Of a stretch of DNA of 64,000 bases, positions 3,841 to 63,870 are shown in pieces (the stretch's first letter is position 1; each line of letters begins with the position of its first letter). This DNA comes from Chiloscyllium plagiosum (Eukaryota): contig NC_057719.1 in the NCBI RefSeq assembly GCF_004010195.1, positions 17,904,165-17,968,164 on the forward strand, given 5' to 3'. A program made the position numbers and the translations under genes. The notes beneath the pieces are model-generated. The model did no database searches. It was not told the origin of the DNA and worked only from the letters and a program-made list of their open reading frames with translations.

Positions 3841-4195
3841 GGGCAAGGCAATGGCCAAGTGGTATTATCACTGGATTGATAATCCAGAGACCCAGATGAT
3901 GTTCTGGGTTTGAATCCTGTCTTGGCAGATGGTGGAATTCAAATTCAACAATAATCTGGAAATAAGAGTCTAATGATGACCATGAATCTATTGTCAATTG
4001 TCTGAAAAACCCTTCTAGTTCACTAATGCCCTTTAAGGAAGAAAATGGCTATCCTTACCTGGTCTGGCCTACATGTGACTCCAGCCCCACAGCAATGTGG
4101 TTGACTCTTAACTGACCTCTGGGCGGTTAGGGATGGGCAATAAATGTGGGCCTGACCAGGGACACCCTCATCCCATAAAGAAATATTAAAAAGAA
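3841..4195 (+). mobile_element. Short non-autonomous derivative of LINE-T (tRNA-like head + 5' UTR joined to LINE 3' tail); SINE-like
   Basis: A-box tggccaagtgg (3852-3862) and B-box ggtttgaatcc (3907-3917). Body matches 17090-17290. At ~4121 it switches to the LINE-T tail gggatgggcaataaatg...cccataaagaaatattaaaaa. Confidence 0.8.
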
Positions 4196-13289: not shown

Positions 13290-13555
13290 ACCACCCCTCG
13301 CGTTCCCTTTGTTCTTGCAGTCCTTTCGGAGGTGAACTCTTTCTTGTACACTGTCTCTCCCCATTTTTCTTAACAAAATATATCACATTACTCTTCACTG
13401 CCATCAATTTTATCTGCCACTCATCCATGAACCTGTCTACACCCTTCTGAAGATTAACAATATCCTCTTCACAGTTCACAAGCCTTTCAAGTTTGGTGTT
13501 ACCTGCAAATTTTGAAATTACATCCAATGCTCCCAAAGTTGAGGTCATTTATACA
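13290..13555 (-). mobile_element. CR1 RT fragment
   Basis: ORF 13279-13548(-) ISKFAGNTKL...NLQKGVDRFMDEWQIK is a degenerate FADD region. Confidence 0.75.
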
Positions 13556-15441
13556 AGTCAAGATGCATTTCTTTCTCCTTTTTTGAATGAATAGCCTTCG
13601 TGGTGGTGGGGTATGGGGGCTGATGGGAGGAGATAGCAAGAATTGGGGTTAGGGTTGATGGTGTTAACAATGACTGTATAGAATAGGTTTGACAGACCAG
13701 TTGAGTTCAAATGTGTCATGTTTGTACATTCCTGTGAATTCCTGAAGGTTTCCTTTGTAGTTTTGCAAGCCAGACTTATCATTACAGATGGATCCTGACT
13801 GGCTGAGAACTTTGTTTAAACAGCAAGAGATCATAACTTGGAATCTGGCATCCAGATTACTTAACTTATAATTTTACTTTTTTTTCTCTCTCTGTAGCTG
13901 TTTGCATTGAAAACCTTGAAGTTGTGAAACTACAGCCAGAAATTGGTAGGAAAGTGAAATGGGTCACTGGTTGACGAAATGGGTTCAGGTTTTATGCTCT
14001 TGAGTCTCCTATTGTCATCACTTGTGCATTTAGTCTCTTTTTTTTTATTGGGGCACAACAAAGGTTTGAGGCTTTCACCACAGCCATTTGAACAGCTGGG
14101 TCCTGCAACGTTTCTTACCCAATTATTGTCCACATCTCCAGAAGATGCTGTGGGTGCGACTCTGGGCTGAACCTGCAACTTCAGCTCAAAAGTAAAAGGC
14201 TTCATTCCCCCTAAAAATGGCTTCCCTTACTAAACTCCTTTATTATGTTTTGCGACAGTTGTTAAAATATTTCATTTAAATTAGAAACTTCAGTGCTTAA
14301 CTGTTTAAAGTATCAGGTTGACTTGATGCGATGGTTCCTTGATTCTGTATTCAGCCAAATGTGGCCTCACTGTTAAGGGCTGTCACTCTCACCTGACCTC
14401 TACAGTTCAGAACCAAAGCTGTAATGACATCCAGCTTTCTGCCAATGGAAATAACGCCTCTTTATTCTAATAATCTAATCCACCATAATTTTGAGCACCT
14501 TTTATGAGATTTACTCCTAACCCTCCACTATCTGAGGAGAGCAATGCCAGTTGCTCTCTGCTCTCCTTGTCATGGGCAAGATGGAATCTATGGGGCAGAC
14601 TGATCCTTCCCCATTGGTCACTGACCCAGATCGAAAACAAAGTAGTGTTGGCAAATCTACCCATCTACAAGAAAAACATACAGATCTAAAGAGGGGAAGA
14701 TGAACAAATGGAAGTATGTGCTCTGAATTCTGGTGGCAGTATAACCTAGCTGAGTGGAAGAACATTATGAAAATAGTTTTGTTAACCTTATCCCACTCAG
14801 CATTCAATTGTGGACGTTCTACCTTTCTCAAGAATGGCTTCATGCAGCTTTCGACATTTTGTTCTCCTTTTCATAGAACAATTACACAAGAACTTAAACA
14901 CCGTGATTAATCGCTTCTGTATTCAAGCTGTGTTTCTGGTATTATCAGAGGAGTCATATCAGGAACACATTTGATTACAGTTGAGAGGTTGAAATATATA
15001 AACTGGACATTTGTTCCCCATCATTTTGTTGAAATGCCAGCCTCTATTCCCACACTCAAACACACTACAAAATATACTTTTGACTCACCAGTATAATTTT
15101 ATGAGAAGGCAGTTGATTAATCTCTCACTAAACATTGCTATCAAAAAATTGTAGCAGTTATGGCTGGGATCAGGACCTATTCTCTGTTGGCTTATCATGA
15201 TTTTTGGCTTGTCTGCTAGAAAAAAAGGTAAGGAACTGCCCACGAAAAGCATCACAAATGAAACATTAATGAATCTTGGGGAGGTGATGGCCTAGTGGTA
15301 TTATCGCTCAGCTATTAATAGACTTATAGTCATAGAGATGTACAGCACGGAAACAGACGCTTTGGTCCAACTCGTCTATGCCAACCAGATATCCTAACCT
15401 AATCTAATCCCATTTGCCAGCACCTTGCCCATATCCCTCTA

Positions 15442-15676
15442 AGGTAAAAACAATGACTGCAGATGCTGGAAACCAGATTCTGGAACAATGGTGCTGGAAG
15501 AGCACAGCAGTTCAGGCAGCATTGAGGAGCTTCAGCAAAATCGACGTTTCGGGCAAAAGCCCTTCATCAGGAATAAAGGCAGAGAGCCTGAAGCGTGGAG
15601 AGATAAGCTAGGGGAGGGTGGGGGTGGGGAGAGAGTACCATAGAGTACAATGGGTGAGTGGGGGAGGAGATGAAGG
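15442..15676 (-). mobile_element. PLE pLTR inserted in the CR1 3' UTR
   Basis: Antisense of 20585-20815. Flanked by duplicated tccctcta. Confidence 0.85.
15543..15570 (-). ncRNA. Minimal hammerhead ribozyme core (PLE-type)
   Basis: The minus strand reads CUGAUGA-A-GGGC-UUUU-GCCC-GAAAC-GUC: conserved core, a 4-bp helix II and a GUC cleavage triplet. Confidence 0.7.
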
Positions 15677-17885
15677 TCCCTCTAAACCCTTCCTATTCAT
15701 ATACTCATCCAGATGCCTTTTAAATGCTGTAATTGTACCAGCGTCCACTATTTCCTCTGGCAGCTCATTCCAAATATGTACCACCCTCTATGTGAAAAGG
15801 TTGCCCCTTAGGTTCCTTTGATACCTTGCCCCTCTCACCCAAAGCTTATGCCTTAGCTCTGCATCTCACCCTGGCAACATCCTTGTAAATCTTTTCTGAA
15901 CCCTTTCAAGTTTCACAACAGCCTTCCGATAGGAAGGAGACCAGAATTGCCGCAATATTCCAACAGTGGCCTAACCAATGTCCTGTACAGCCACAACATG
16001 ACCTCCCAAGCCCTATACTCAATGCTCTGACTAATAAAGGAAAGTATACCAAACGCCTCCTTCACTATCCTATCTACCTGCAACTCCACTTTCAAGGAAT
16101 TGTGAACCTGCACTTCAAGGTCTCTTTGCTCAGCAACACTCCCGAAGACCTTACCATTAAATGTATAAGTCCTGCTCTGATTTGTTTTCGCAAAATACAG
16201 CACATCCCATTTATTTGAATTAAACTCCATCTGCCACTCCTCAGCCCATTGGCTCAATTGATCAAGATCCTGTTGTAATCTGAGGTAAACATGTTCACTG
16301 ACAACTACATCTCCAATTTTGGTGTCATCTGCAAATTTATTAACTATACCTCCTATGTTCACATCCAAATCATTTATGTAAATGATGAAAAGTAGTGGAC
16401 CCAGCACCGATTCTTGTGGCACACGACTGGTCACAGGCCTCCAGTCTGAAAAGCACCACCACCTTTTGTCTTCTACCTTCGAGCTAATTCTGTATCCAAA
16501 TGGCTACTTCTCCCTGTATTCCATGAGATCTAACCTTGCTAACCAGTCTCCCATGGGGTACCTTGTTGAATGCCTTATTGTAAGTCCATATAGATCACAT
16601 CTACTGTGCTGCCCTCTTCAATCCTCTTTGTTACTTCTTCGAAAAACTCAATCAAGTTTGTGAGACATGATTTCCCCGCACAAAGCCATGCTAACTGTCC
16701 CTAATCAGTCCTTGCCTTTCCAAATACATGTAAATCCTGTCCCTCAGGATTCCTTCCAACAACATGCCCACCACTGATAGCAAACTCACTGGTCTATAGT
16801 TCCCTGGTTTTTCCTTACCACCTTTCTTAAAGAGTTGCACCGCATTATCCAATCTCCAGTCTTTTGGCACCTCACTTGTCACTATTGATGATACAAATAT
16901 CTCAGCAAGGGGCCCAGCAATCACTTCCCTAGCTTCCCACAAAGTTCTAGGGTACATTTGATGATGTCCGAGGGATTTCACCTCCTCTTCTATAATATGG
17001 ATATTTTTCAAGATGTCACCATCTACTTCTCCACATTCTATATCTTATCTAGGAGCTCAGGTAATGTTCCAGGCATCCAGGTTCAAATCCCACCCAGATA
17101 ATGGCATTTGAAATCAATTTTTATAAATTTGGAGTTAAGAATCCCACTGATGGCCATGAGTCAATTGTGGATAAAACCCATCTGGTTTACTAATGTCCTT
17201 CAGGGAAGGAAATCCGCCATCCTCACCTGGTCTAGATTTTTTGTGACTCCAGACCCTCAGCAATATGGTTGACTCTTAAGTGCTGTCTGAAACGGCCTAC
17301 ACTCAGTCGTATCAATCACTACAAAGTCGCAAAAAAGAAACAAAACTGGATGGATCACCTGGCATCGATCTGGACACTGGAATAGGCAATAGCAAAACAG
17401 CTCTGTCAACCCTGTAAAGTCCTCCTTACTAATATCTGGGGGCTAGTGCCAAAATTTGGAGAGCTGTCTCACGGACTAGTCAAGCAACAGCCTGACATAG
17501 TCATACTCACAGAATCATCCCAGGCACTACTATCACCATTCTGGATACGTCCTGTCCCACCGGCAGGATAGACCCGGCACAGTGGTATACAGTCAGGAGA
17601 GAGTTGCCCTTGGAGTCCTCAACACCATCTCTGGACCCCCTGAAGTCTCATGGCTTCAGTTTAAAAATGGACAGGAAAACCTCCTGCTTCTTACCATGTA
17701 CCATCTTCCTCCATGTTTTGGATAAAGCACTGAGGATAGCAAGGGTGCAAAATTTACTCTGAGTGGGGGATTTCAGTGTCCACCATCAAGAGTGGTTCAT
17801 CAATAGTACTACTAATCCAACTATTTGGGTCCTAAAGGACAGAGCTGCTAGGCTGGATCGGCTGTAGAATGAAAAACATACTTGA

Positions 17886-18010
17886 AGAAGGGCTTATGCC
17901 CGAAACGTCGATTCTCCTGCTCTTTTGATGCTGCCTGACCTGCTGGGCTTTTCCAGCAACACATTTTTCAGCTCTGATCTCCAGCATCTGCAGTCCTCAC
18001 TTTCTCCTAG
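17886..18010 (+). mobile_element. 5'-truncated PLE pLTR in the LINE-T endonuclease region
   Basis: agaagggcttatgcccgaaacgtcg...cactttctcct, flanked by ttga on both sides. The host LDLILTN motif is restored on removal. Confidence 0.85.
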
Positions 18011-18447
18011 TTGACCTCATCCTTACCAATCTGCTGCCTGCAGATGCAAATGTCCATGACAGTATCACTAAGTGTGGCCACCGCACAGTCCTTGTGGGGA
18101 TGAAGTCCCGTTTGCACATTGAGAATATCCACCATCATTTTGTGTGGTACTATCACTGTGCTAAATGGGACAAGATTTTGAACAGATCTAACAACTCAAG
18201 ACTGGACATCCATGAGATGCTGTGGGCCATCAACAGCAGAGAATTGTACTCCAGCAGAATCTGTCACCTCATGGACCGGTATATCCCCCATTCAATCATT
18301 AGCATCAAGCCAGGGAATAACTCTGGTTCAATGGAGAGTGCAGGAGGACATGGCAGGAGCACATCAGGCGTACCTGAAAATGAGGTGCCAACCTAGTGAA
18401 GCTACCAAACAGGACCATTGCATAAGCAGCAAGTGATAGACAGAGAT

Positions 18448-18768
18448 GGGCGGCACGGTGGCACAGCAGTTAGCACTGCTGCCTCACAGCGCCAGAGACC
18501 CCGGTTCAATTCCTAACATGGGCAACTGTCTGTGTGGAGTCTGCACATTCTTCCTGTGTCTGTGTGGGTTTCCTCCGGGTGCTCCGGTTTCCTCCCACAG
18601 TCCAAAGATGTGCAGGTCAGGTGAATTGGCCATGCTTAATTGCCCATAGTGTTAGGTGAAGGGGTAAATGTAGGGGAATGGGTCTGGGTGGGTTGCGCTT
18701 CAGAGGGTCGATGTGGACTTGTTGGGCCTAAGGGCCTGTTTCCATACTGTAAGTAATCTAATCTAATC
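18448..18768 (+). mobile_element. HE1 SINE (young, full length)
   Basis: gggcggcacggtggcacagcagttagcactgctgcc...ggttcaattcc (A/B boxes), V-type body, CR1-like tail gggcctgtttccatactgta and (aatct)n end. Confidence 0.95.
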
Positions 18769-18781
18769 TAAGCACTCCCAC

Positions 18782-18914
18782 AGGCAGAAGTGGGTACTGC
18801 AGATGCTGGAGATTACAGTCAAGATTAGAGTAGTCCTGGAAAAGCACAGCAGGTCAGGCAGCATCTGGGGAGCAGAAAGATTGATGTTCGGGCAAAAGCC
18901 CTTCATCAGGAATG
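18782..18914 (-). mobile_element. PLE pLTR
   Basis: aggcagaagtgggtactgcagatgctgg...cttcatcagg, flanked by aagcactcccaca and aagcaatctcaca. Confidence 0.8.
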
Positions 18915-20004
18915 AAAGCAATCTCACAACCAACCCATAAGATCTAAGTCTGCAATCCTGCCACATTTAGTCATGAATGGTGGTGGACAATTAAACAACT
19001 CATTGGAGGAAGATGCTCCACAAATATGCCCATCCTCAATGATGGAAGACCCTAACACATCCGTACAAAAGATAAGGCTGAAGCATTTGCAGCAATCTAC
19101 GGCCAGAAGTGCCGAGAGGATGATCCATCTCGGCTTCCTCTAGTGATATCCAGAATTATAGATACCAGTCTTCAGCCAATTCAATTCACTCCACATGATA
19201 TCGAGAAACATTTAGAGACACTGGAGACTGTAAAGGCTTATGGTCCCTGACAACATACCGACAATAGTACTGAAAACTTGTGCTCCAGAATTTTCTGCAC
19301 ATCTAGCCAAGCAATTTCTGTACAGCTAAAAAATTGGCGTCTACCTGACAATGTGGAAAATTGCATCCGTCTACTCTCAATCATCAATATCGTGATGCAA
19401 GGTGTCATCAATAGTGCTATCAAGCAGCATCTGCTCAGCAATGACCTGCTCAGTGACGCCCAGTTTGGGTTCAACCAGGGCCACTCAGTTCCTGACCTCA
19501 TTACAGACTTGGTTCAAACATGGATAAAAGATCTGAATTCCCGAAGTAAGGGGAGAGTGACAGTCCTTGATATAAATGCTGCATTTGACCAAGTGTGGCA
19601 TCAAGGAGCCCTAGCAAAACTGAAATCAATAGGTATCAGTGGCAAACTTCTGTGGTTGGAGTCATACCTGGCACATAGGAAGATGGTAATGGTTATTGGA
19701 AATCAGCCATCTCAGCTCCTGGACATCTCTGCAGAAGATCTTCAGGCTCGTGTCTGAGGCCCAATCATCTTCAGCTGCTTCATCAATGACCTTCCCTCCA
19801 TCATAAGGTCAGAAGTGGAGATGTTTGCTGATGATTGCGCAATGTTCAACATCATTTGTGACTCCTCAAATACTGAAGCAGAACATGTTCAAGTAAACAA
19901 GATTTGGGACATGTCCCACTGCAACAAGATTTGGGCAATATCCAGGCTTGGTCTGACAAATAGCAAGTAACATTTGTGTCACATAAATGCCAGGCAATGA
20001 CCAT

Positions 20005-20815
20005 ACTACCTGCTCAGGTCCACAACCCCTACAACCCACCCTCCCATCCTGGCACCTTCCCCTGCCACCGCAGGAACTGCAAAACCTGCACCCACACCTC
20101 CTCCCTCACCTTCATCCAAGGCCCTAAAGGAGCCTTCCACATCCATCAAAGTTTTACCTGCACATTCATTAATATCATTTATTGTATCCGTTGCTCCCGA
20201 TGCGGTCTCCTCTACACTGGGGAGATTGGACGCCTCCTAGCAGAGCGCTTTAGGGAACATCTCCGGAACACCCGCACCAATCAATCACACTGCCCTATGG
20301 CCCAACATTTCAACTCCCCCTCCCACTCTGCCAAGGACATGGAGGTCCTGGGCCTCCTTCACCGCCGCTCCCTCACACCAGACGCCTGGAGGAAGAACGC
20401 CTCATCTTCCGCCTCGGAACACTTCAACCCCAGGGCATCAATGTGGACTTCAACAGTTTCCTCGTTTTCCCTTCCCCACCTCACCCTAGTTCCAAACTTT
20501 CAGCTCAGCACTGTCCCCATGACTTGTCCTACCTGCCTATCTTCTTTTCCACCTATCCACTCCACCCTCCTCCCTGACCTATCACCTTCATCCCCTCCTC
20601 CACTGACCCATTGTACTCTATGCTACTTTCTCCCCACCTCCACCCTCCTCTAGCTTATCTCTCCACACTTCAGGCTCTCTGCCTTTATTCCTGATGAAGG
20701 GCTTTTGCCCGAAACATCGATTTTGCTGCTCCTTGGATGCTGCCTGAACTGCTGTGCTCTTCCAGCACCACTAATCCAAAATCTGGTTTCCAGCATCTGC
20801 AGTCATTGTTTTTAT
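20005..20815 (+). mobile_element. 5'-truncated Penelope-like element: GIY-YIG endonuclease remnant plus pLTR
   Basis: ORF 19976-20653 contains PGTFPCHRRNCKTC..NIIYCIRCSRCGLLYTGE..RFREHL (GIY-YIG with Cys/His linker), then a frameshift. pLTR with hammerhead at the 3' end. Flanked by ccat on both sides. Confidence 0.92.
20691..20718 (+). ncRNA. Minimal hammerhead ribozyme core (AUC triplet variant)
   Basis: ctgatgaagggcttttgcccgaaacatc. Confidence 0.6.
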
Positions 20816-21436
20816 CCATTTCCAATAACAGACAATCTAATGATAGCCCCTTACCATCACTGAATTCCCCACTATCAATATCCTTGGGGTTATGAGTGAC
20901 CAGAACTCAACTGGACTCATCACATAAACACAGTGGCTAGGAATACTGCAGCAAGTAACTCACCTCCAGAGTCCTCAAAGCCTGTCCATCATCTACAAGG
21001 AATGTGATGAAATCCTCCCCACTTGCCTGGATGGGTGCAGTTTCAACAACATTCAAGAAACTTAACATCATGCAGGAGAAAGCATGAATGGCACCAGTTT
21101 GTCCCCCACCGATGCTCCGTAGCAGCAGTGTGTACTATCTATAAATTGCACTGCAGAAATTCACCCTAGATCTTTAGGTAGCACCTTCTAAACCCACAAC
21201 CACTTCCATCTAGAAGTACAAGGGCAGCAGATACATGGGAACATCACCACTTGCAAGTTCCCCTCCAAGCCATTCATCATCCTGACTTGGAAATGTATTG
21301 CTGCTCCTTCAGTGTTGCTGGGTCAAAATCCTGGAATTCCCTCCCTAAGGGCATTGTGGGTCAAACTATAGCATGTGGACTGCAATGATTCAAGGCGGCA
21401 GCTCATCACCTTCTCAAGGGCAACTAAGTCGGGGGG

Positions 21437-22641: not shown

Positions 22642-22946
22642 CGGGCAGCATGGTGGCTCAATGGTTAGCACTGCTGCCTCATAGCACCAGGGACCTGGGT
22701 TCAATTCCACTCTCAGGTGACTGCGTGTGGGGAGGTTGCACATTCTCCCCATGTCTGTGTGGGTTTCCTCCAAGTGCTCTGGTTTTCTCCCATGGTCCAA
22801 AGGTGTGCAGGTTAGGTGAATTGGCCATGCTAAATCACCCATAGCATTCAGGGATGTGTAGGTTAGGTGCATTAGTCAGGGGAAAATGTAGGGTAATGGG
22901 CGTGGGTAGGATACTCTTTAGAAGGGTACTGTGGATTTGTTGGGCC
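22642..22946 (+). mobile_element. HE1 SINE
   Basis: tggtggctcaatggttagcactgctgcc..gggttcaattcc head and HE1 body. Confidence 0.9.
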
Positions 22947-23184
22947 TTGAACTGAGTAATGCTCGGCTATTTCAGAGGGTAGTTAAGACCCACCACATTG
23001 CTAGGGGTCTGGAGCCACATGTAGGTCAGACCAGGTAAAGATGGTAGATTTATTTTCCTAAAAGACAGTGGTTAACAAGGTGAGTGTTTGCAATAATTGC
23101 TGATAATTTCATTGTCACTATTATTGAGAGTAGATTTCAATTTCAAATGTTTTCTAATTAATTAGTTCAGAGATTTACTACATA

Positions 23185-23403
23185 CAGTCAGTTCTTCTAT
23201 AACACGATAATTGCGTTCTTGTGGAACCCCGCACGATAGAAAAATTGCGCTTTAGAAACAACACTTAAAATGTTGGTGATGTAATTGCATTACAAGTAAC
23301 ACACGTTTTAAAAGTTGGCGCTTTAGAAACAGTGTTCCCAATTTGTTAATCGCGTTACAGTGAATTCGTGTCGATGAAGCACCCATTATAGCAGAACAAC
23401 CTG
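23185..23403. mobile_element. Tc1/mariner-pogo (Tigger/MER6-like) MITE
   Basis: Imperfect terminal inverted repeats cagtcagttcttctataac and attatagcagaacaacctg. TA TSD at 23183-23184 and 23404-23405. CpG-rich interior with no ORF. Confidence 0.85.
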
Positions 23404-23779
23404 TACCTCTGGAAATGATGGGACTTGAAACCAGACCTCCTGGCTCAGAGCTGGGGACACTAACTCTGCATCACAAGATCCCTTGAATTCAGATCTTCTA
23501 ATCAATCTGTTCAGCGGTGTTATTACTGTCTTTGTCCTGCTGAATGGTAGTAGCCAATGGTTTTGGAAGGTGCTGGCTAAAGAGTCTTGGTAAATTTTTA
23601 TATCTTGTAGATGGGACACAGTCAGCACACAGCACACAGCATAAGCCTTGTTAATTGACATCTTTACTAAATCAGTCACTGGGGATTATGAAACTAATGT
23701 ATTCTATCAATATGAGCCTGAGGTCAAATTCTTCCTTTCCCTTTTCTGGAGTTTAAACTTCATAACCTGAACTATATAA

Positions 23780-25495: not shown

Positions 25496-25634
25496 GATTT
25501 TACTGCTCCTTGGATGCTGCCTGAACTGCTGTGCTTTTCCAGCACCACTCTAATCTAGACTCTGGTTTCCAGCATCTGCGGTCATTGTTTTTACCTCATT
25601 CATTGCTCATCCCTTGGAAAAGAATGAGATAACA

Positions 25635-25900
25635 ACATAGTGGGAACATCACTGGACTAGTAACCCAGATGTCTAGGTCAGTGTCTGGGAACATAGGTTA
25701 AAGTCTTAACAAAACTGCTGCTGGAAATTAAATCCAATGAATAAAATCTGGAATTAAGATTCTAATGATGATGCTAAATCTACTATAAACTGCTGGAAAA
25801 CCCATCTGGTTCACCAATGCCTTCAGGGAATGAAACTGTTATATTTACTTGGTCTGGCCTACATGTGACTCCAGGCCCACAACAATGTGGTCTGAATCTG
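25635..25900 (+). mobile_element. LINE-T 5' UTR or short-derivative copy
   Basis: aaatctggaattaagattctaatgatg..cccatctggttcaccaatgccttcaggg..tggtctggcctacatgtgactccag matches 3950-4090. Confidence 0.75.
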
Positions 25901-27375
25901 CAATTCATTGAGTGTCCTTCCTCCAGCTTCTGGGTCCCATCCTGTGGCACAGTAGTAGTGTCCCTATCCCTGAGCTGGGATACCCAGGTTCAAATCCAAG
26001 ACGTCAATTAACAATGCTATTGCTGTTTGCTGACTGTGTAACATCTACAAGACGAACTGCAGAAATTTACCAAGATTCCTTAGACAGCACCTTCCAAAAC
26101 CAATGGCTACTTATCATTCAGAAAGACGAAGACAACAAACAAATGGGAACACCATTAGTGCCACTCACCATGCTGACTGAGAAATGTATCACCTTTCACT
26201 CAGTATCACTGGCTCAAAATCCTGGAAGTCCCTCCCAATTGGCAATGTGGGACTGCAGCAGTTCAAGAAGGCAGCTTACCACCACCTTCTCAAGGGCAAC
26301 TAAAGATGAGCAATAAATAATGGTGCAGCCAGTGATGTCCACATTCCCTATTACTGAAATTTTAAAACAAGCTATTTGCTAAGATGGGCACAGATTAATT
26401 CACAAGACAGCAATAGAAAGGATCCTCATTCATGGCTTTCTAACCACTAGCCAGAGAATCCTACAAAATAAAATTTGATTGGCAATGTCCATTTCAATAG
26501 ATCATCAATATTCATCATTTAGGGACAAATTTGAAGGATTGACTGCTTTGATGACATACTTTCAAATCGCCATAAATTTCCAAAGCCATACTTTACTCAA
26601 ATTGACGCTTTTGGGAGAAGTAGGGAGTTGTAGGGGTGGAAACGCATTACATATAAACTTTCAGGTTAATATACATTGTGCCGAAATGTACAACCACACT
26701 TAAATTGCCTGCACAAACACAGTACACTTTGCCGTCCACACAGTACGTGTGGATAACTTACATGTAACCTGTGTAATTAAGCACAATCTGCATTACAAGG
26801 GGTGAATACAATGTAATCTGGGCTTGGTATTGATCTTACAAAAACCCTACTTTTGTCTTTAACATACACCTGTTATTTTTGATTACTTGTCCTCTAGCCT
26901 GGCCACTCACATCCACATATTTCATTTGAGGAAAGGGAGCACACAGGTTGGAAGTTCCAGCTCCTCGCAGCTGCTGATCTGTGCTGCTTTGTACTGAGCT
27001 GAAAGGAGGCAGATTTTGTTGTGCAAAAAGGATAAAGGGCCAATTTTAGCCCCAAGGTAACATATGTCACCAGGCTGCCTGGTCGTATGCATACTATTAA
27101 GGGGAAAGAGCTGGATGAGATTCTACAAAGGTTATGTTCCCCAATATTTCTCGGCAAGATATCCTCCCAATTTTACAAAAACAAAAGAATAATTTTATCC
27201 TGTTAAAGGCAAGAGCTCATCATGTGGACACTGATCATTGTCTAGGTCTGCCATCTTTGTAATGTTTCCTGAGCTTGATAATATTGCCTTGCTTATTCCC
27301 AGCAGTCTCTGCTTCTCGCTACTTTCAGTGCAGCAAATTTCTTCCTTTACTGAGGTGGGTTCTTTCTTTAATTTG

Positions 27376-37420: not shown

Positions 37421-38654
37421 ATGTTTGTCCCTATTCCCATAAAGTCATTGAGTTGTACAGCATGGAAACTGCCTCTTCTGTTCAACTCCTCCAATAAAAA
37501 AAATTGTGAAGGTTAGCTTCTAGAGGAACTCATAATGTGAGCATGTTTTAAAGGGCTTTGTTCTGCTAGCATTCATTGATGATTTGGGGTTGGATTATGT
37601 TGAGAGATCATTTAAATTTTGTGATGATATATGGAAAGCACAGCATTCAAACATGCATTAAGTGACTAAGTGAAAAAGAAAACAGAGCAAGGAAATTGAC
37701 CTTCCCAACAAATTGACATTTAAAGCAAAAACTTCTACACGGAGACAGAAAATATCTCAAACCTAAGGAAGGTCTTCCTCTTTGTCTTCATTTAATTATG
37801 GTCATTTTTTTTTACGGCTCTTATAATCTGACCTACAATAATCTTTTCAGATTTGTACAATGTATCTTTCAATTTGATATTTCCCTTAACTTCCTTATTT
37901 AGCCAGGGATGATGCATCCTATTAAACGTGTTTATCTTTGTCACTGGGATAAACCTTTGCTGTACCATCTTAGTTCAAACACAATTGCCAGCATGATATG
38001 GCCTGAGTGTTGACCTACATATTCACTTACATAACATACATCACAAAAATTGGGTTCTTGTTGAAACAGAACAACAGTCACAACACTAGTTATTTACATT
38101 GCTAACATCACAGACTTGTACATAGCCTAGGTTCTGTGCCTAATGATTTTACTGTACACCACGTACACTAAGACATAACTGACTGACTGAACACACTTCA
38201 CTCCATTGTACTGTGGATTTAGTGTAGCTACCCAAAAATATTTCCCAGTTGCTTTATATTTGACTATCATAGATTTAACAGTACAATGTATACTGTGAGA
38301 CCGTAATGCTGAGAGTATTGAGGAGCAGAGGTAAGTTTTGCACAACCCATTTCTAGTATGTCTTGGAAAAGTGCACTGTTGATCTGCAGACCATTGTCAG
38401 GAACAATTTGCGAAAGGAGACCAAAATTCTTTACTTGATTTTGGAGTTTCCTCCTTAACCAGCACAATCTCTAGACATTTCTCTCTTCCCTGAATTTGTT
38501 TCTCAAAGGCCAGAGTCACTTGACATAATATTGGCTTATCTGTCTCCAGTCAGATTTTGTTCAATAATTACTCATCAGAAATGACCAGTAGGTTAGTGAG
38601 GCAGGAGTGCGTGCACTTAAGTCCACATTTAATTGAGTATAACATCTGTGAGCC

Positions 38655-39825
38655 TTAGCTAAACAATGTCAATGGGAATCAAGGGGAAAACTCTGTTGGA
38701 TTGGAGTCATAGCTGGCACACAAGAAGGTGGCTGTGGATGTTTGAGGTCAGTCATCTTAGCTCCAGGACATTTTTGCAGGAGTTCCTCAGTGTAGTGTCA
38801 AAGGCAAAGTCATTTAAACAATTTCAGCAACAAGCTTCCTTCCATCATAATGTCATAAATGGGGAAGTACACTGATGATTTCACAATATTCAGATGTTGG
38901 TTAGGCTTGACAGTGTTATGAACAAATTGTGTCTTTGAAGATTTGAAAGAAACATGATTAGCAATGTTTGGCTGTAGATATCATGATTTGGTAATTTAAT
39001 CATTCACAACTCCTCAGATGCTGAAGCAGTATAGATCCAAATGCACTATAACCCTGACAATGTTCAGGCTTGGGCTGAAAATGTTGAAAATAAAATTCAT
39101 GCTGCATAAATGCCAGGCAGTGATCATCTTCAATTGGATACAACCTAATCATCGACCCTCAACAGTCAATAGTGTTACCATCACTGAATCTCCCACTATC
39201 AACATTCTAGGGGTTGCCATTTATCAGAATCTGAGCTGAACTAGCCATATAAATACAGTGACTTCAGGAGCATGTCAGAAGCTAGCAATCCTGCAGCAAA
39301 TAATTCACCTCCTGACTCTGCAAAGCCTGTCCACCATCTATATGATACAAGTCAGAAGTGTGATGGTATATTCCCCATATGCCTAAATGAATGCAGCTTC
39401 AACGGCACTCAATAAGTTTGACACAACCTAATACAAAGCAGTCTGCTTGATTCATACCACATCCACAAACATCCAATCTCTCCACCACCAATGCTCAGTG
39501 TGTACTATCTACCAGATGCACTGCAGATATTCACAAAAAGCTCCGTACTGTGCACCTTCTAAACCTACAACCACTTGAAGGGCAGGGATAGAAAATTCCC
39601 TTCAAACCACTTACTTTCCTGATTGAGAAATGTATTGAGTTCCTTCATTGTCACTAGGTCAAAGTCCTAGAACTTCCTCCCTAATGGAATTGTGGGTATA
39701 CCTACAGAAATGGACTGGAGCAGTTCCAGAAGGAGCTCACCACCACCTTCTCAGAGCCAACTAGGAACAGGCAATAAATGCTGACCCAGCCAAAGACACC
39801 CACATCCCCCCGAGTGACAAGAAAT
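38655..39825 (+). mobile_element. 5'-truncated LINE-T (RT C-terminal part and tail)
   Basis: Collinear with 19610-21430. Complete tail ggcaataaatgctgacccagccaaagacacccacatccc. Confidence 0.85.
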
Positions 39826-41629
39826 GACTACATTATAAATGGATGCTGTTGTTGCATTTGTAAATTATGTGAAACAAGAAAGGAACATTCAGAGGGACAA
39901 TTGTCACATCTGAGGCTGAAGAAACACACTTGAAGTTGTAGATTTAACTTAAACAAAGATGAATAAAGCTTCAATAGAGACCATTTAGCACTGCTTTTAT
40001 GTATTCTATCTGGATTGTCTGTGTGGAACCAGAGTATTTTCAATTTTTGTTCAAGTTTTAGTGTCTAATACTCAGGCCATCACCCTAACAGCAGTGACCG
40101 CAGTATCAGCAAGGCTCTTCATGGGTTCTGACAGGAAGGAATGATTGAACTCTTGAGATAGTTGAAGAATGGACTTCTGTTATACCGTCCTCGAGCATAA
40201 GTGAGCTTCTCAGGACAGGCAGCATTCACATTTCAGATGAACCTGGATGTTAGAGAAGATGAAATACAGTTAACTGAATAAGAAGTGACAATGATAAAAG
40301 AAGCTGGGTGTCTTGAAGGCAGTTTCAACAATGAAGGAGACGAAGAAAACTATTTAAATTCAGATAAAATAATGAGGTCAAGAATATCACCAGATTATTA
40401 GGATGGAAATGTGTTCTATTAAAATCAAAGCTAAGAGCTGGGAGATGTTGGTTAGGCTTGTCAGTGTTATGAACAAATTGTGTCTTTGAAGATTTGAAAG
40501 AAACATGATTAGCATTGTGTTGTTGAAGATATCATGATTTAGTAATTTAATCATTGCATTATGAGAGAGTTGTCTGCATTGAGGATGTGCACTCTGAGTA
40601 TGATCAGTAATAAGTAAATGGATAGGGTTAAATGATGTATGAAAGAGTCATTAAAATGAAGCAGGAACAGGTTGTTTACCTTTTCTATTTACCCAGTGTA
40701 TGAATGGAGTAATGCCTCCACTTGGAAAAATGCTGTATGCACTGAGGTGAACATGATTGTCTCAGTCTCAGGTCAAGCTTGTGAATATACCTGAAAAAAA
40801 TAAATGTAATATTGTTTGGGCAGTATTAGAATCTAATGAATTAAGTCTGAGAATATACAATGGTGAGGCTGTACAGTGCTAAATGTAGGTGAATGGTTGG
40901 CTCCATAACATGTTGCCAGTGTTCAAACCAAGGGAGTAATTAACTTTCCCTGTGGTTTAAAAGAATCTGCATTTGTTTATGCTTAAGCACAGCTCAACTG
41001 TATTCCATGCCATTCAAATTTAATAAAGAGGGGGGAGCAGGATGTTCACAAAGATGCATTGTCTAAGTAAAATCTAGGCTGAACTATAGAGAGATCCCAT
41101 TGAATGTGTTGTATGATGCACATGTGTGTGAGAGTTGTTATGTCTGCCTCGTACTGGAAATAACTAATGATCCATATTTGTTTTCTCCAATGAAACCAGA
41201 TATGTATCCTCTGCAGTTGTTGTACCCACAAGAGGAATTTTATTGCACTGTCCGGAAACCTGGACACTGTAAAATCATTAATAAGTGCATAAATTTACTG
41301 CTTCCTTCAGGCCCCCATAGGGAGTTTAAAGAACTGTAGCATTGGAGAATTCATTTCATACTTACTTGAACACAATTAGGTACTTTGAAGTCAACTGGCG
41401 TCTAGTTTTCAGATTAAATTCCTCTCACCTCTAGGATCTGTTTCCCAATGCAGCCCTGAGTGATTGATTCATTTCTCACTGCTGACTGTAAGAGCCAAAA
41501 TTTAGTCAGCATGTGGCCATGGAACATAACAGCTGATAATTCAGCACCAACGTTTTGAAATTGGTAGCTCTACGCAAAGCAACCTCAAGAGTGACTGCTT
41601 AGGGAATGAAAACATCAACATGGCATAGT

Positions 41630-44600
41630 GTTCTTTCCAGCCAGGGATGTGGGCTTTTCTGACTGGACCTAATTGTTCTTGAGAAGGTGGTAGTGAGCTG
41701 CCTTCTTGGCAGATACAAAATGACATTAGGGAGTCTGGATGGTGAATGGCTTGAAGGGGAGCATGCAGGTGCTGGGTTCCCATGTATTTGCTGTCCCTGT
41801 TATTCTAGAAGGAAGCGATCATGGTGTTGGAAGGTGCTCTGTAAGGATCTTTAGTGAATTTCTGCAGTGCATCGTGTAGGTGGTATACATTGCTGTTACT
41901 GAGCATCAGCAATGGAAGGAATGAATGTTTACAGATGTGGTACTGGTCAAATCAGCTGGATTGTTCTGTATGGTTACAAATTTCTTGAATATGTTGTTAC
42001 TGTACTCATACAGGCTATCTAGTCAATGGCAACTCCAAGGACACTGATGGCAGAAGTTTCAATGATGGTCATACCATTTAATATCAAGGGCAATGGTTAG
42101 ATTCTCTTGTTGAAGATAATCATTGCCTGATTCCAGTTTTGCTAGGTCTCCTTGATACCACATTCAGTCAAATGCTGCTTGGATGTCAAGGGCAGTCACG
42201 CTGACAAAATTAGTGAGTTTTGAGAAGATTTGTAGCTCGGGTTGAGGTTCTGAATGTAAGTTTGCTTGCTGAGCTAGAAGGTTCATTTTCAAATGTTTCA
42301 TCACCATATTAGGTAACATCATCCTCGAACAAACCAAACAGAGACATGTGCGAGTATTCCTAGAAGCATGGCACTCCAACTGGAACTCTATCAAGAAATA
42401 CATCGACTTGGATTCCATTTACCACTCCCAAGAAAAAGAACAGGAAATGTCATCACCATATGAAATGACATCATCATCCCAAGGAAATGTAAACACATAA
42501 ATAAAAAGCAGGCCATACCACCAGTGCTTCTCTGGAGGCTCATTGATGATGTTATTTAGTATGGTAATGAAACATCTGAAAATGAACCTTTTAGCTCAGT
42601 GAGCAAACTTACATCCATGCTGACAAACTCTCCATAGTTTACCTCTTTTTTTCCATTTTGTGTCAATGGGGTCAAAGGCTCAGTGGCTGTTGCAGAACCC
42701 AGACCGGGCATTACCGACCAGGTTATTGCTAAGCAAGTACTGTTTGATGGCATTGTGGATTTTATGTCCTGTTATTTTGTTGATGATTGAGAGTAGACTT
42801 GTGATGTGGGAATTAGGTGTGTTAGATTTGTCTGACTCTTGTTTACAGGACACACATGGGAAATGTTCCACATTGTTGGGTAGATGTTTTGGAACAGCTT
42901 GGCTACAAGTGTGGCTAATTCTGGAGCACAGTCTTCAGTATGATTGTCAGAATATTGTCAAGATCCATAGCCTTGACAGTATCCAGTGATAGCCATTTTT
43001 GAGACACCTTCCAGCTCACTGAGCTAACTTATATACTTAGTATCCAGTGACTCCAATCATTTCTTAATGTCACATGGAGTGAATCAAATTGACTGAGAAC
43101 TGGCATTTATGATGCTAGCAACCTCTGAGGAGGCCAAGTTGGATTGTCTACTTGGCATTTCTAGCTGAAGATGTTTGCAAATCATTCAACCTTATCTTTT
43201 GCACTGATGAGCTGGGCTTCCCACTTTTTAAGAATGGGGATATTTCTGGAACTTCCTCTTCTTCCTCTTCCACCTCCAGTGAGTTGAGTGATTGTCCACC
43301 ACCATTCACAACTGGATGTAGCAGGATTTCAAAGCTTAGATCTGATCTTTTGGGTTGTGGGATCTCTTGGCTCTGTCTATTCCTTTCTGCTTATGCTGTT
43401 AGATGTGCACTGTATTGTACCTTCACCAGGTTGGTACTTAATTTTAAGTTGGCCTTATTCTGCTCTTGGCATATCTTCCTACACACTTCATTGAACCAGG
43501 TTGATGCCCTGGGTACTTGGCAATGGTAGAGCGGGGATATGCCAGGCCATGAGGTTGCAAATTGTGTTGGATTCTGCTGCTACTGCTGATGGTCCACAGC
43601 ATCTCATGATTCCCTGTCTTCGATTGCTAGATCTCATTCAGCCAATATTAGTGTTGTACAATATGATGGGCCTATTCTCGATTTGAAAATGGATATTGTC
43701 TCCAACATTAATGCATGGTGATCATTATTACTGATACTGTCATGGTCATACATCTATAGCAAGCAGATTGGGGAGGATTAAATCCTTCTTGTTGATTTCC
43801 CCCAGCACCTGCTGTAGACCCATTCTGGCAAGAATGTCGTTTAGGACTTGACCAGCTCTATTAAAAATGGTGATGGACATTAAGATCTCTCACTCAGCGT
43901 ATATTTTGCACCCTTGCCATCTTCAGTGCTTTCTGCAAGTGCTGTTCAACATGAAGGAGAACTGATTGAGTGTGTTATAAAATAATCAGCAGGAGATTTC
44001 TTTACTCATTTTTGACTTGATGCCATGCAGAGTCAAGTTTCTCAAGGCAACCGCCTCCTGACTGTATACTCAGTGGTATACACAGTGCCAACACCTCTGA
44101 TAGTTCTGTCCTGCCTGTCAATGAGGACATACTGAGGGATGTTGTTGTTGTTGTTTGAGACATGTTCTGTAATGTACAATTTCATGAGAATGACTATGAT
44201 TTTCCAATATCAGCATCTACCCCCCACATGTTAGTGAGGAGGTCTTTGCAGGTTTGACAGGGCTGTGTTTACCTATTGTTGTTTCTGGTCCCCTGGTCGA
44301 TGCTAGGTGATCCAAATAGTTACATTCCATTTGGAGACTTTTTTAATGGTTTGGAACAACTGAGCACCTTATAAGACTATTTCAGAGGGAGGTTGAGAGT
44401 CAACCACAATGCTGCGGTTTGGTATCACATGCAGGTCAAGCCAGGTAAGCGAGGCAGTTTTTAGATTTTCTTCTCTAAAGGGCATTCGGTTTTATGGCAA
44501 TGGACAGTAGTGAAATAGTCATCATGTGACTTCTAATTCTGATTATTTTAAAATCTGGATTAAAGTTTCACCATCTGTCAAGGTCAGATTTGATCATATC

Positions 44601-44660
44601 CCCAGAGTATCACCTGGGTCACCACCCGAGAGAGGTTGCCACAACATCATTGCACTGTTG
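41630..44660 (-). mobile_element. Second long LINE-T copy (older, internally deleted), retaining 5' UTR/head and 3' tail
   Basis: Reverse complement is collinear with 17049-21430: head/UTR ~44380-44660, endonuclease ~43700-44260, RT ~42150-42960, tail ~41630-41720. Confidence 0.8.
42209..42615. mobile_element. PLE of a third family: inverted pLTR + GIY-YIG C-terminus + pLTR
   Basis: KQRHVRVFLEAWHSNWNSIKKYIDLDSIYH at ~42335-42425. Degenerate hammerhead ttgatgatgttatttagtatggtaatgaaacatc. TSD ca(c/t)gctgacaaa at 42197-42208 and 42616-42627. Confidence 0.8.
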
Positions 44661-51073: not shown

Positions 51074-52679
51074 ATTGACTCAGACTACAAGAGAAAATCC
51101 CATCCACCATTCTCAGTCCAAACAGACCTCATGCCTCGTATCACTTTAGTTAATCCAGTTGGCTCTAACAACCCTGTGGTGTAGAGGAAATAAATGACCA
51201 GCATTCCTTGTTCCACCTGTTGGGAATTCATGTTTGTGCACCCGTACAATTGTGGGAGAGCACAAAGTTGTACTATAGGGAATCCTCCTCCTTCTAGGAT
51301 TAGTCAGGAAGAATTGTTACTTGTATGAGGTGGTAAACAGCAGTCATATGGAAACATCTTCACAAGGTAAAGGGAAACAATTGAAAAGATAAAGGCATTG
51401 AAGTTGTGTTTAAAGACATTATCTGCAAGGCAGTAACACTCCTTTACTGAGAGTGAAAGGGGCAAAGGTTTCAAATAGACAACATAATGCACTTTGTGAC
51501 ATGGCTAACATTGGCCCTTATTGTAGAGTGGTGCACAAATTGTCATCTGTGATTCATTTAACAATAAATGTCCCCAGCCTTGGAACAGTCATACAGGGTG
51601 ATATAATGAGTGAAGTACAGTGCTCCCATATCAGGGAGGAAGAGGTGGGGAAGAGGAAAATTACAGCATGAATTGATTTTGACCTTCCTCATGCATTATA
51701 TTGCTTGGATGTTGACAGGGAACCTATGACAGAGGTCTGGGAGTCGGTTTCTGACCTGACCCATAAGCTGAGGAGAAGTTCTCATGAAAAGGAGAACAAA
51801 AAGTTATGGGCGTGTGGAATTTGGCTGAAACACAGGCCTACAAATATTCTTATTTACTTTAAATTAATTGGTTGATTGGCTTATGACCGCAGAGTGGTGA
51901 AAGACACACTGTTATGACTGCCAAGCAAGAATAACTAGAGTGTTTTTAACTGCTGTGAGGTGTACCATCAATTTTAATGTCAGCCTCACTGAGCTCTCAT
52001 ACTCATTAAAACAAGCTGATTATTTCCACTCCCTGTCATAATACACTAGCCCCTCACCTTAACACAATCTGATGTACTGCTATCCCTGATAAAACACACA
52101 TTATTTATGGCTGCATTACTAATAGACAAACCTTATGAAACTCCTTGTCTATGACATGTCCCTCACGATAACGTGCATTTTTCATGGCTCTCGGTGACAG
52201 CAGTATAGAGAGGGTCTAGCACAATATTTATTTACTTCTACAAACTACTGCATTAAAGTGGGGATCCTAGTTACAGGGGGCATTCTCTATCTTCTGGCAC
52301 TTCTAACTTAGAGACTGTTGTCACAGTTTGGGCCACAAATAAAATTTAGGGATGGCACTTATGAAATTCTGCCTCACAACTGTGTGTCAGTCATCAAACC
52401 TTCATAGAACAGACAAACAGCTGAACAGCAGCATAATGATGGCCCCAGTTACAGATCCATTATCAGCGATTATGAGATCACCTGTCAATATGCTTTTGAA
52501 ATAAACTGCAGTGGCATGCTGAGGTCGTAACACATGGTCTAACATCCACTGGCATCCACCATGACACCCAGTGCCCACCAAAGTAACAAATATCCTGACT
52601 ATACATGCTACATAAAACAAACTCCAAATATTGGAGAACGTACTGCATTTTGGAGGGTAGGTGACAATATTTCAATTCT

Positions 52680-53230
52680 TTTCATGGGCTGTTAGTTACT
52701 GGCAAAGTCCACATTTGTTGCCCATCCATTATTGCCCCTTGAAACATTGGAAATCAGCCATCTTTAAATTGAAAGGCCTACTAGGCCATTTTAGACAACA
52801 GCTAAAATTCAGCCACATTCTTGAGAGTCTAGAATCCCATATGTAGGCAGAAGTGGGTACTGAAGATGCTGGAGATTAGAGTCAACATTAGAGTGGTCCT
52901 GGAAAAGCACAAGGAATTCCTGATGAAGGGTTTTTGCCTGAAACATCGATTTTCCTGCTTCTCGGATGTTGCCTGACCTGCTGTGCTTTTCCAGCACCAC
53001 TCTAATCTCATATGTAGGCCAGATGGGGTAAAAGGTAAACTGTAGATCTCCTTCCTTAAGGCATGAACTAGATGGCATTTATAACAATTTTCACAATCAC
53101 CATTACTGAAACAATATCTTCATTTCAGATTGATTAATTAATTGAATTTAAAATTCTACCAGGTACTAAAGTCGAAGACGAACTTGCATCCCCAAGGAAA
53201 GCACATCTGGACATTGTCACTACGCTCCCT
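52680..53230 (-). mobile_element. Short LINE-T derivative with a nested inverted PLE (~52845-53008)
   Basis: Antisense tail (catttgttgcccatcc) joined to the antisense 5' UTR. The PLE is flanked by catatgt and has a hammerhead core at 52920-52947. Confidence 0.7.
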
Positions 53231-56200
53231 CAAGACAGTAGATTGGGTAAATAGATAATCTATAAAGTCTATAGATAGATAGACTTCCCTCTGTTCCTAC
53301 TTACCAGCATTCAGTTTGACAAATGCTTACCATCCTTCAGTCCACTATTCATTTAATCCAATATTCAAGCAGTCATTCGTGTATGATCCCAGAATAATGT
53401 AGCTCATCAACTGTAAGTAGCATCACAGCTGTAGCATCACAGCCAAGGCCTAACAGCCATATGTATGTGTCTTTCATTTTGCTGCATCAGAAATTACAGG
53501 GAGTCACTGATCAGCCTTTTTTCACCTTATGCTAGGCAGGCTAGGGCTACATGTAGCAACTATTGATCTGTTGTCACACATCTCATTTGAATGATCTTAT
53601 CAAAGAAAGTAATAGAATTTCTCAACAGTTCTGTGTGAGGAAAGGGTTAACCAGCGCAGCATGCAGGAGAGTTGTGGCCACTTCACTGAGATTTGAGGAG
53701 ATTAATTGTGGTAGAAGTGGAGAAGTGACCTGTGGGTCTGTTTCATAACTGCAGATTGTGAAGCAAAATGCCTTCAGTGCAGCATGAGCCCACATATAGG
53801 CTGTGTTGAATAAAATAGCAGTTTGTGTGGGATTGTCTTGACACTTAATGCAGAACACATGAAACAGATGCAAAACTTACTGTGAGGAAACAAAAAGACT
53901 TAATAATAAAGGCACTTGGACTCCTTTTACAAAAATGAATTTGGACCAGTCCTGAAGCAAAAAGGGTCTATTCCCATCACAAACACATCCAGGCTTTGCC
54001 AACTCTCTTCAACCAACTGCTGGTGGGACAAATCCACCCATGGTTAATAATTTGGCTTGGGTGGGGCAGAGGTATGCATCAGTTGTCATGGCCACCCCCA
54101 CCATGACAGGATCAACTGAGTGGATTTCCCTTAAAGCTATTCTTTTGATAGAGGTGGGTGACATGATAAAGGGGAAGATGAACGAAGCCTCCCTACCCCA
54201 CAACCCCACAGTGAAAGACCTGGAGCTGATATTGTGGAGACTCAATGTTTGAGATGTAAGATTGGATTGGGAGTGCCTGTGGATGTGGACCCCTTCAGCA
54301 GAAGTGGGGAAGGGAACAAGTTACAATCATAAAACATAGTGTGACATCACTATGAAACACTATTTGTGGAAAAGGTGAAGCTGTTCTCCTTCCCAAAGTG
54401 GAGCTGTTTGTTTTTTTGGGGTGGGGTGGGGGCATTGGTGGTGGAGGTGGGAGGATGGAGGTGGCACTTTGTTGAGAGAGAGAAGGGCACACTCTGTAGC
54501 TGTGCTGTGTGAAACTTTCCATGGGATTTTGTCTCATTAAATATATAAGGCATGAATTATTTATGGAACCAAATTCTGCTGCACTGCTAATGGCCACTTT
54601 CCTTGGGGGTCAGTGACAAAGACATCCCAATGTGGGTGAGTGACAGAGGAACAGTCTTTATGATGAAAGTGTGCAGCAAGGACAGCATGATGTGACAGTG
54701 AGAAAAACTAAGACAGAGATTATTTTTTCTCCCCTAGCATGTTATGAGGAAATGTATATTATGAAGCACTCTCAAGCTCATGTTTAATACAAGTGTTTTA
54801 TACAGCTATACATATATATATGATATACACAATGAAGCAGTGAGTTATTCGCCACCTTGTATATTTTATAAGAGCTTTCCAGTAAACACACTGATATATT
54901 GTAGGGGGTTAACAACGACATGTGAGACTGGTGTCACTGTTCTCAAAATGATTGAGTTTACACAAAGAATGCTGTCTGTAATGAACTCTTGCAAATGCGC
55001 TTTTGCAGGCAAAAAGAGAGAGAAAAAAAACATACCTCCAACTACTTCCTGTAATTGCGCATTATTATAAAGGAAGCAGGAGGAAAAGATTTTGAAATTA
55101 CGATCCATTATGCTCAAGAGGGAAAAAAGCATCACCCTCGTGAAGCACAGCTGACAAGCTTGACTAAATTAGCCCAGGACCATTACCAAAAAAAAATCTC
55201 TTAATTGCCAACCATTTTGTTAGGTCAATTGACTCTAATTGAAAAAATAACAAAAAGCTTATTATGCTGCAAATGCAGCCAGAAATGAGGCATATGCTAT
55301 GGAGGAAACAATCATTCTAAATTTCTTTTGCCACTACAGTAGTGGCAAAGTTCATTATATGTCTGAGCATATAATTTTTTAAATGAAATTGTGTTCAATG
55401 GATTTTGTTTTGTGTGGGGAGGGAGTGTGAGAGGGAAAGAATTGCTTCTGTTGCCTTTTGTTTTAACATATTTGTCCTAATTTTCTCAGATATATTTTCT
55501 GGTTACCCGTCTTCGCTTTAAATTACAGATCATTGAAATGTATATAACAGCTGAAGCAGATAGAATGATCAAACCCTGGAAGCACGACAGAACACCAGCA
55601 ATTTAAAAATCACTGAAGCAAATATCAGACCAATTTGGACAACAGTTGAAATGAGAGGCCAGCTTTAATAGCTGGAATAGGTAAATTGCCATCCTAAACA
55701 CTTAGCCAAATAAATTTTTGATGATTAACAGCAGGCGTTGTCTCTCTTTTTAACCTTGAGAAAGTTGATGTGAAATTGTTGAATGTTTACAGTGAGTTAG
55801 GAAAGATTTAGCTTGATCTGTTATGGATCCAATTGCAGGAGCGCGTGTGATCTCCCAGCTCTCATCTCTCGTGGGGAATGTCTCAGATGTCTCGTGGGTC
55901 CTGAGAGTTGCTCATTGATTGGAATGATCCGGTCATTCTAGAAAAAGGTGTCATTCCCACTGTACCCCGTGTGTGAAATGGAGTCATTGCATCCTGTCTT
56001 TCTTGCTTCTACATTTTTACATATTTTGCAGTCAGAGCACTCCTTGCAACCAGGGAATGAAATTTCGCGTAATTTAGAGAATCCTGCAGAGGAATATCTC
56101 CTACCTGGGCATCACAAACACAGAAGGGAGAGATCACTTGTACCATATAGCTCATCTTTCTATACAATACATCATCTCACCTCCCTGTTCCTCCCTCCCA

Positions 56201-59910: not shown

Positions 59911-59934
59911 GATCAGACCTGTTTTGTTTTGTCT

Positions 59935-63489: not shown

Positions 63490-63870
63490 TGAGGGAGTAC
63501 AGTAGCATGTTGGCAAGTAGTAGTTAAGCGATCTGGAGCCATGAGTTCAATTCTCACTCTGGAGGCTGAGCAATCTAAATTAAATTAGTTGAATACATCA
63601 GGAATACAAATCTAGCCTTCTGGTAAGATCTATGCAACTACTGGATCTGCATTTAAAAAAAAACCTGGTTCATTATTTTCCTTTTGGGAAAGGGTATTTA
63701 ATGCTCTTACCCAATGTGACATAAATGTAACTCCATGTTAATTGTCCTTTTTAAATGACCCAGCATGCTGTTCATTTTGACTAAGAAGGTGGCTCAACAC
63801 CACCAAGTTGGGATGGACAATAAATACCAGCCTTGCCAGTGATGCCCATGTTCCATGAATGAATAAAAGA
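63490..63870 (+). mobile_element. Old short LINE-T derivative (head + UTR + tail)
   Basis: Degenerate head/UTR followed by gggatggacaataaataccagccttgccagtgatgcccatgttccatgaatgaataaaa. Confidence 0.7.

Follow-up and report, generated by a model that had tools for sequence, protein, structure and literature searches.

Does a protein-coding long interspersed nuclear element (LINE) of sharks carry, as its own 5' end, a tRNA-derived head of the kind found in short interspersed nuclear elements (SINEs), and might RNA polymerase III (Pol III) transcribe it from there? The question is raised by a LINE at 15278..21430 (plus strand; copy A) in a 64,000-nucleotide (nt) stretch of Chiloscyllium plagiosum contig NC_057719.1 (positions 17,904,165 to 17,968,164, forward strand; assembly GCF_004010195.1), which we refer to as the window and whose numbering is used throughout. 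An initial reading of the letters alone (the sequence-only reading) had proposed that removal of a nested CR1 element joins an A-box to a B-box directly ahead of a LINE that lacks a first open reading frame (ORF1), and that the whole represents an autonomous SINE-LINE chimera. Our analysis shows copy A to be a dead, decayed copy of the elasmobranch Zenon-1 LINE, an element of ∼3.3 kb; sequence comparison further shows its head to be the native 5' end of an autonomous-type family, and not a chance neighbour. Whether the long form is transcribed by Pol III is a separate matter, on which our judgement is evenly balanced.

Anatomy of the long copies

We hold the overall anatomy reconstructed here to be very nearly certain. 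Against a profile built from 14 long relatives (length 937), the pieces of copy A align consecutively between positions 2 and 932. The element starts with the 5' half of its head (15278..15319), in which 37 of the first 42 nt are, by eye, those of positions 1-42 of the whale-shark consensus RhiTyp_Zenon-1, and which contains the A-box TGGCCTAGTGG at 15288-15298. A canonical CR1 element, 5'-truncated, foreign to the LINE and recognized by its reverse transcriptase (RT) match, lies next on the minus strand (15320..17048) and itself holds a Penelope-like piece (15445-15677). The 3' half of the head (17049..17115) follows, comprising an extra arm and the B-box GGTTCAAATCC at 17080-17090. Removal of the CR1 joins the two boxes just where the sequence-only reading had placed them, with the A-box at +11 and a spacer of 52 nt to the B-box, a spacing also found by eye in RhiTyp_Zenon-1. 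A strict A..B pair, defined by the textbook consensus for the two boxes, occurred in none of 20000 random 60+60 nt joins of window sequence.

Downstream of the head, the 5' untranslated region (UTR) consists of a 'body' that is common to the LINE and to short SINE-like copies (17125..17300) and a LINE-only remainder (17301..17415), with no space for an ORF1. The first endonuclease motif begins 338 nt past the B-box and the longest stop-free stretch between them is 56 codons, in agreement with the earlier claim that a short UTR leads directly into the coding region; upstream of the head, nothing scores with the profile of long relatives (best iE 0.61). The decayed APE endonuclease and linker (17416..18445; profile positions 2-305, the Pfam endonuclease corresponding to residues 29-224 of the relative P0031) are followed by a decayed RT region (18916..20003; RVT_1 E 2e-11, profile 355-712) and the C-terminal part of the frame to its end (20816..21430; profile 763-932). 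Copy A has no ORF1, and one open reading frame (ORF) holds APE and RT. The copy no longer has its 3' tail: its end is followed by a G-run and a further CR1 piece, and no target-site duplication (TSD) is readable because the last ∼60 nt of the element are missing. An Rfam scan of 17030-17450, in this decayed copy, returned no 5' self-cleaving ribozyme family.

Four nested pieces beyond the CR1 interrupt copy A. One is a Penelope-like piece within the APE region (17886-18011). Two lie side by side on the plus strand and are foreign to the element (18448..18915): a SINE that we take to be HE1-like (18448-18770) and a Penelope-like piece (18782-18915). The largest (20004..20815, plus strand) is a foreign Penelope-like piece bearing a GIY-YIG match (E 0.003, below the cut-off), and its empty-site joint 20004-20851 occurs in 18, 16, 0 and 4 records of four read runs. 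At 18752-18771, the 3' end of the nested SINE, hundreds of poly-A loose-end reads of that SINE's family were seen in RNA run X21.

A second, older long copy (copy B, 41630..44660, minus strand) comprises head, body, UTR, APE, RT and 3' end, with deletions and insertions, and is ∼70% identical to copy A over 2258 aligned columns. A head profile from which copy B had been left out still recovered its head (E 4e-9), bearing out the claim that a degenerate version of the same head stands on an older minus-strand copy; decay has left the boxes of copy B beyond the reach of a scan that tolerates one mismatch. Copies A and B independently show the same order of head, body, UTR and APE. Two other identities were considered and rejected. 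Classification of the long copies as SINEs is ruled out by their 3 kb length with APE and RT, and copy A is no canonical vertebrate CR1 with an esterase ORF1, given that it has no ORF1 and that its RT can be aligned with the nested CR1 row over just 38 residues.

The head, its family and its short derivatives

The family, its consensus and its lack of an ORF1 are already published. According to the portion of PMC13343379 available to us, Zenon is present in sharks, rays, coelacanth and hagfish, is universally without ORF1 and with a poly-A tail, and has elasmobranch elements that are not deposited in repeat databases. All seven elasmobranch Zenon consensuses in Table S2 of that paper (five species, 2886-3314 nt) begin with the head described here, position 1 of RhiTyp_Zenon-1 corresponding to window 15278, and all of them pass from the body into the LINE-only UTR at an identical point; these comparisons rest on the first 400 nt of each consensus, within which the head is missing from all three hagfish and coelacanth Zenon consensuses. 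Six B-box 10-mers compared with ∼1003 consensus rows gave six matches, all to elasmobranch Zenon. Because the seven published consensuses begin at the head, and because two long window copies carry it, we consider the head native, and the earlier argument that it is no SINE lying there by chance holds. None of the published elasmobranch consensuses extends upstream of the head, contains an ORF1 or lacks the head, any of which would have spoken against that view. In the 500 nt upstream of the six head-bearing elements in the window, nothing is common except one opposite-strand repeat match between two of them (S and C, below).

The closest proteins (62-74%; 9 of 10 looked up) come from whale shark and one other shark, and full-length relatives at 36-46% include amphioxus. 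In a quick RT tree, copy A and a whale-shark protein form a pair (99), nested in a group of 20 rows (94) that includes an amphioxus protein; having no named Zenon rows and a CR1 row that is partly out of frame, the tree adds little to the identity. The nearest full-length locus, L001, has no head, has an in-frame Met and holds 17 runs of four T residues (T4). Positions 120-480, in the 5' region of this invertebrate-type relative, carry a twice-repeated motif, seemingly present by eye in the hagfish Zenon-2 consensus as well, with no Rfam match. The body motif had no match in viral, metagenome and genome collections, and protein-based locus searches returned no shark-type copy and 80 distant loci, none with a blastn match to copy A or S. 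Among 54 loci ARAGORN called a single tRNA, which lies within a frame on the minus strand. When the sequence ahead of 33 distant LINE frames was scanned for a relaxed A..B pair, one match emerged (shuffles average 0.07); it belongs to another clade and is not at a known 5' end, and the pair lies at 370-428 of locus L037, ∼100 nt before the endonuclease.

The head appears, as judged by likeness and fold, to be tRNA-derived in the manner of a SINE head and not a tRNA gene, because short copy S (3842..4192, plus strand; head and body joined to the LINE 3' tail) gives Rfam and fold likeness and ARAGORN finds no tRNA gene in the window. The best-scoring Rfam family for S is tRNA (20.6 bits, E 0.027, 3853-3928), with the anticodon and T arms paired, and the predicted fold of the head is a cloverleaf whose extra arm is long (z -3.17). 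The tRNA-derived character suggested by the sequence-only reading therefore stands as a likeness, at a score below the Rfam cut-off. The 3' half of the head of copy A does not beat shuffles in the fold test, the head of copy C has no Rfam tRNA match, and a whole-window Rfam scan has none either. The head may resemble tRNAs with long variable arms. Two features of the dogfish head were noted by eye in the supplement of PMC13343379: its extra arm resembles a duplicate of the anticodon arm, and the stem of that arm differs on both sides from those of three other sharks with pairing kept.

Six window elements share the head: the long copies A and B, the short copies S, H (52677..53231, minus strand; decayed head, body and tail, with a nested Penelope-like piece) and I (63490..63866, plus strand; decayed head, body, last codons and tail), and copy C (25626..25885, plus strand), which is cut off after the body. 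The window thus holds at least three short, non-coding derivatives composed of head, body and tail (S, H and I), each with a different body-tail junction. The differing junctions, together with the last codons of the ORF kept in I, fit repeated internal deletion of the LINE, and the short SINE-like copies look like its deletion products. Copy D (22945..23478, minus strand) carries a different tRNA-like head on the same body, with 5 nt of tail visible before an HE1-like SINE, indicating that heads were also swapped. Of the proposal of an autonomous SINE-LINE chimera, the part that places the head natively on an autonomous-type family is upheld; the chimera itself is plausible, and the short copies appear to descend from the LINE. 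SacSINE1, CmiSINE and NSRE1/2 were considered as identities of the short family and set aside by description only, as their descriptions do not fit. Between the head and body of copy D, a MITE-like insert of ∼200 nt with inverted ends was seen by eye (23190-23400, minus strand).

A candidate Pol III transcript and its alternatives

The mechanism that these observations favour would use the head as the LINE's own internal Pol III promoter, of type 2, its A- and B-boxes being bound by TFIIIC. The 5' end of a full-length insertion marks the start of its template RNA, so that the RNA would begin at the first base of the head; Pol III would initiate there, 10 nt before the A-box, and read through a body kept nearly free of T4 terminators. 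The uncapped RNA would be translated without an in-frame AUG and copied from its 3' tail by target-primed reverse transcription. Internal deletions that keep head, body and tail would leave ready-made SINEs, a structure seen in the window, which the same enzyme would mobilise. That the long Zenon form is a Pol III-initiated, terminator-poor, autonomous LINE seems to us about an even call. The full chain of events is slightly less probable than that: an autonomous, protein-coding retrotransposon of 3.3 kb that owes its promoter to a captured tRNA and is transcribed from it by Pol III over its whole length, has lost T4 terminators throughout its frame, needs no in-frame AUG for translation, has been maintained in both sharks and rays, and gives rise to true SINEs through nothing more than the loss of internal sequence. 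LINEs are generally assigned to RNA polymerase II (Pol II) and SINEs to Pol III, and a natural 3.3 kb Pol III messenger would, if real, break that split. It would also offer a one-step birth of SINEs, by deletion of the middle of a LINE already bearing the head, and an example of a compact, self-promoting, single-ORF element.

Terminator content bears most directly on this proposal. Six window copies were aligned and sense-strand runs of four or more T residues (T4+) were counted from 17150 on. The copies contain 11 such runs, none shared between copies, while the shared runs of the other bases in the same region number four for C4, two for G4 and seven for A4 (base fractions T 0.243, C 0.246, G 0.193, A 0.318). 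We simulated descent with the same divergences and coverage (400 runs each, with a substitution model of our own). The probability of finding no shared T4 was 0.005, 0.058 and 0.138 for ancestors allowed to contain T4 (six control frames of similar T content, random sequence with T 0.22, and a dinucleotide model of the copies), and 0.59, 0.50 and 0.75 for the same three ancestor types with T4 removed. With exactly 0, 1, 2, 3 or 4 ancestral T4 runs, the probability of the data was 0.53, 0.26, 0.16, 0.09 and 0.01. By eye, TTTT is absent from the visible 400 nt of all seven elasmobranch consensuses and present in all three others, and none of 45 other LINE frames, most of them T-richer, has two or fewer T4 runs. 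The test gives moderate, not decisive, support to a terminator-poor body. The caution in the sequence-only reading that T-runs would terminate Pol III is weaker than feared, in that the runs look copy-specific.

Copies A and B both have a run of four or five T residues right after the head (17118 and 44553), and several further points weigh against a Pol III messenger. The mildest null that allows T4 gives a probability of 0.14, one or two ancestral runs stay compatible with the data, the raw T4 count is not below the dinucleotide expectation (13 observed, 13.7 expected), and about two thirds of the multi-copy alignment columns hold just two copies. With regard to the promoter, the tRNA score of the S head lies under the Rfam cut-off of 29, the heads of B and C fold no better than shuffles, four other head-bearing stretches gave no tRNA match (lax threshold or whole-window Rfam scan), and the stingray Zenon consensus has a broken B-box. 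Abundant SINE copies could moreover have biased the 5' end of the published consensuses. Finally, AATAAA is present by eye in five of eight tail matches with E < 0.001, which fits Pol II polyadenylation, and an uncapped RNA of 3 kb with upstream AUGs should translate poorly. Copies S, F and I end in short A-rich tracts rather than in clean poly-A.

The alternative that survives best, which we nonetheless consider rather unlikely, is that Pol II produces the long RNA, starting in the body or the head or reading through from the host. The tRNA-like fold would then define the 5' end through cleavage of the RNase P type, or have a structural or translational function comparable to that of the ribozymes in other single-ORF LINEs, and Pol III would matter for the short copies only. 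Such a transcript would account for the tail signal, and the cloverleaf fold of S suits a structural role. It is also favoured by the coding start: in none of three consensuses inspected by eye (whale shark, white shark and stingray) is there an AUG in the APE frame between the endonuclease and the nearest upstream stop, and an out-of-frame AUG is kept; the link to APE relies on copy A for the first two. Kojima 2018, in the part accessible to us, calls bipartite LINE derivatives likely Pol II transcribed and places 5' ribozymes in six LINE clades. Yet a Pol II transcript leaves the absence of shared T4 runs unexplained, and by eye the promoter boxes look better kept among the consensuses than the acceptor stem. 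Pol III, for its part, can make translatable RNA, and removal of TTTT doubled the output of a Pol III reporter, according to the accessible text of PMC8223928. Raw reads of one poly-A RNA run covered the strand marked as sense by the poly-A ends of the nested SINE more deeply in 15 of the 17 bins that hold element sequence only; these reads stem from many copies, may be intronic and are uninformative on polymerase or start. The read alignment listed no pile-ups of starts or ends and, its reference lacking the first 42 nt of the head, is uninformative on starts.

Less probable still, to a degree that we would call distinctly unlikely, is a head that is a mere passenger: head and body gained from a SINE by template switch and then maintained by exchange with SINEs, which greatly outnumber the LINE, while contributing nothing to its cycle. 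The body is indeed much deeper than the next LINE-only bin in all four read runs (17x, 13x, 40x and 26x, depths that are not copy number), and the second head on the body of copy D indicates that heads can be exchanged. A functionless head, however, would not hold the 5' end of the element at the head's first nucleotide, and long forms from sharks and from a ray, as well as two window copies of different age, all begin with this head. An artefact in which LINE pieces were inserted into or beside SINE copies and the consensuses merged the two is highly improbable: a body and tail common to SINE and LINE can mislead consensus building, and TSDs are not readable for copy A or, by eye, evident around copies B and S, yet A and B arrived independently at one order of parts and the junction of body and LINE-only UTR is the same in every elasmobranch consensus.

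Remaining window copies and known systems

Three headless copies complete the family in the window: copy E (38650..39830, plus strand), 5'-truncated with a tail; copy F (59926..60810, minus strand), 5'-truncated with an A-rich tail; and copy C' (26035..26358, plus strand), the last ∼320 nt of the LINE. At 25940-26358, a second tRNA-like head without an Rfam tRNA match stands ∼35 nt before that fragment, as another SINE with a Zenon tail or by chance adjacency. Elsewhere, the window contains an assembly gap of N (24363-25160), near-perfect hairpins formed by inverted repeat pieces with sub-threshold microRNA matches (62054-62130 and 10018-10193), and further old RT-like fragments of other LINE families (5192-5451, 7673-7894, 13297-13521 and 36284-36739).

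The closest known system is elasmobranch Zenon-1 itself (RhiTyp, CarCar, ScyCan, HypSab and SquAca; PMC13343379), the same family, which matches by eye over its 5' 400 nt and is likewise ∼3.3 kb with a single APE-RT frame and no ORF1. The words 'tRNA' and 'promoter' do not occur in the main text of that paper, or in that of its preprint, and the portion of the paper covered here mentions no short derivatives. No statement of a tRNA head or Pol III promoter on elasmobranch Zenon was found there or in the other open literature searched, subscription papers being outside that scope; it comprised passages of PMC3747384, PMC1513397, PMC11481361, 10.1101/443036, PMC7245038 and PMC5499810.

In the same genomes, the HE1 SINE and HER1 LINE of sharks and rays (passages of PMC3747384) also pair a tRNA-headed SINE with a CR1-group partner; they differ in having only the 3' tail in common, and the window copies that we take to be HE1-like do not match the Zenon head or body. 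RTE-1_DAn and related elements are LINEs with tRNA-like sequence, of the RTE clade, a comparison that draws on a one-sentence mention in PMC5786205. Persaeus SIDEs and lepidopteran Zenon (PMC6740152) resemble the present case in that short elements are composed of Zenon 5' and 3' ends and the partner is a single-ORF element of ∼3.3 kb; Persaeus lacks both a Pol III promoter and any homology to tRNA, whereas here the parent LINE itself has the head. The bipartite SINEs derived from RTE and Vingi (Bov-tA, SINE2_Gav; as given in the accessible part of PMC5786205) share the arrangement of tRNA head, LINE 5' UTR and LINE 3' tail. In those systems the head is on the short form only and the 5' parts were found to come only from RTE and Vingi, whereas here a CR1-group LINE supplies the body and itself bears the head.

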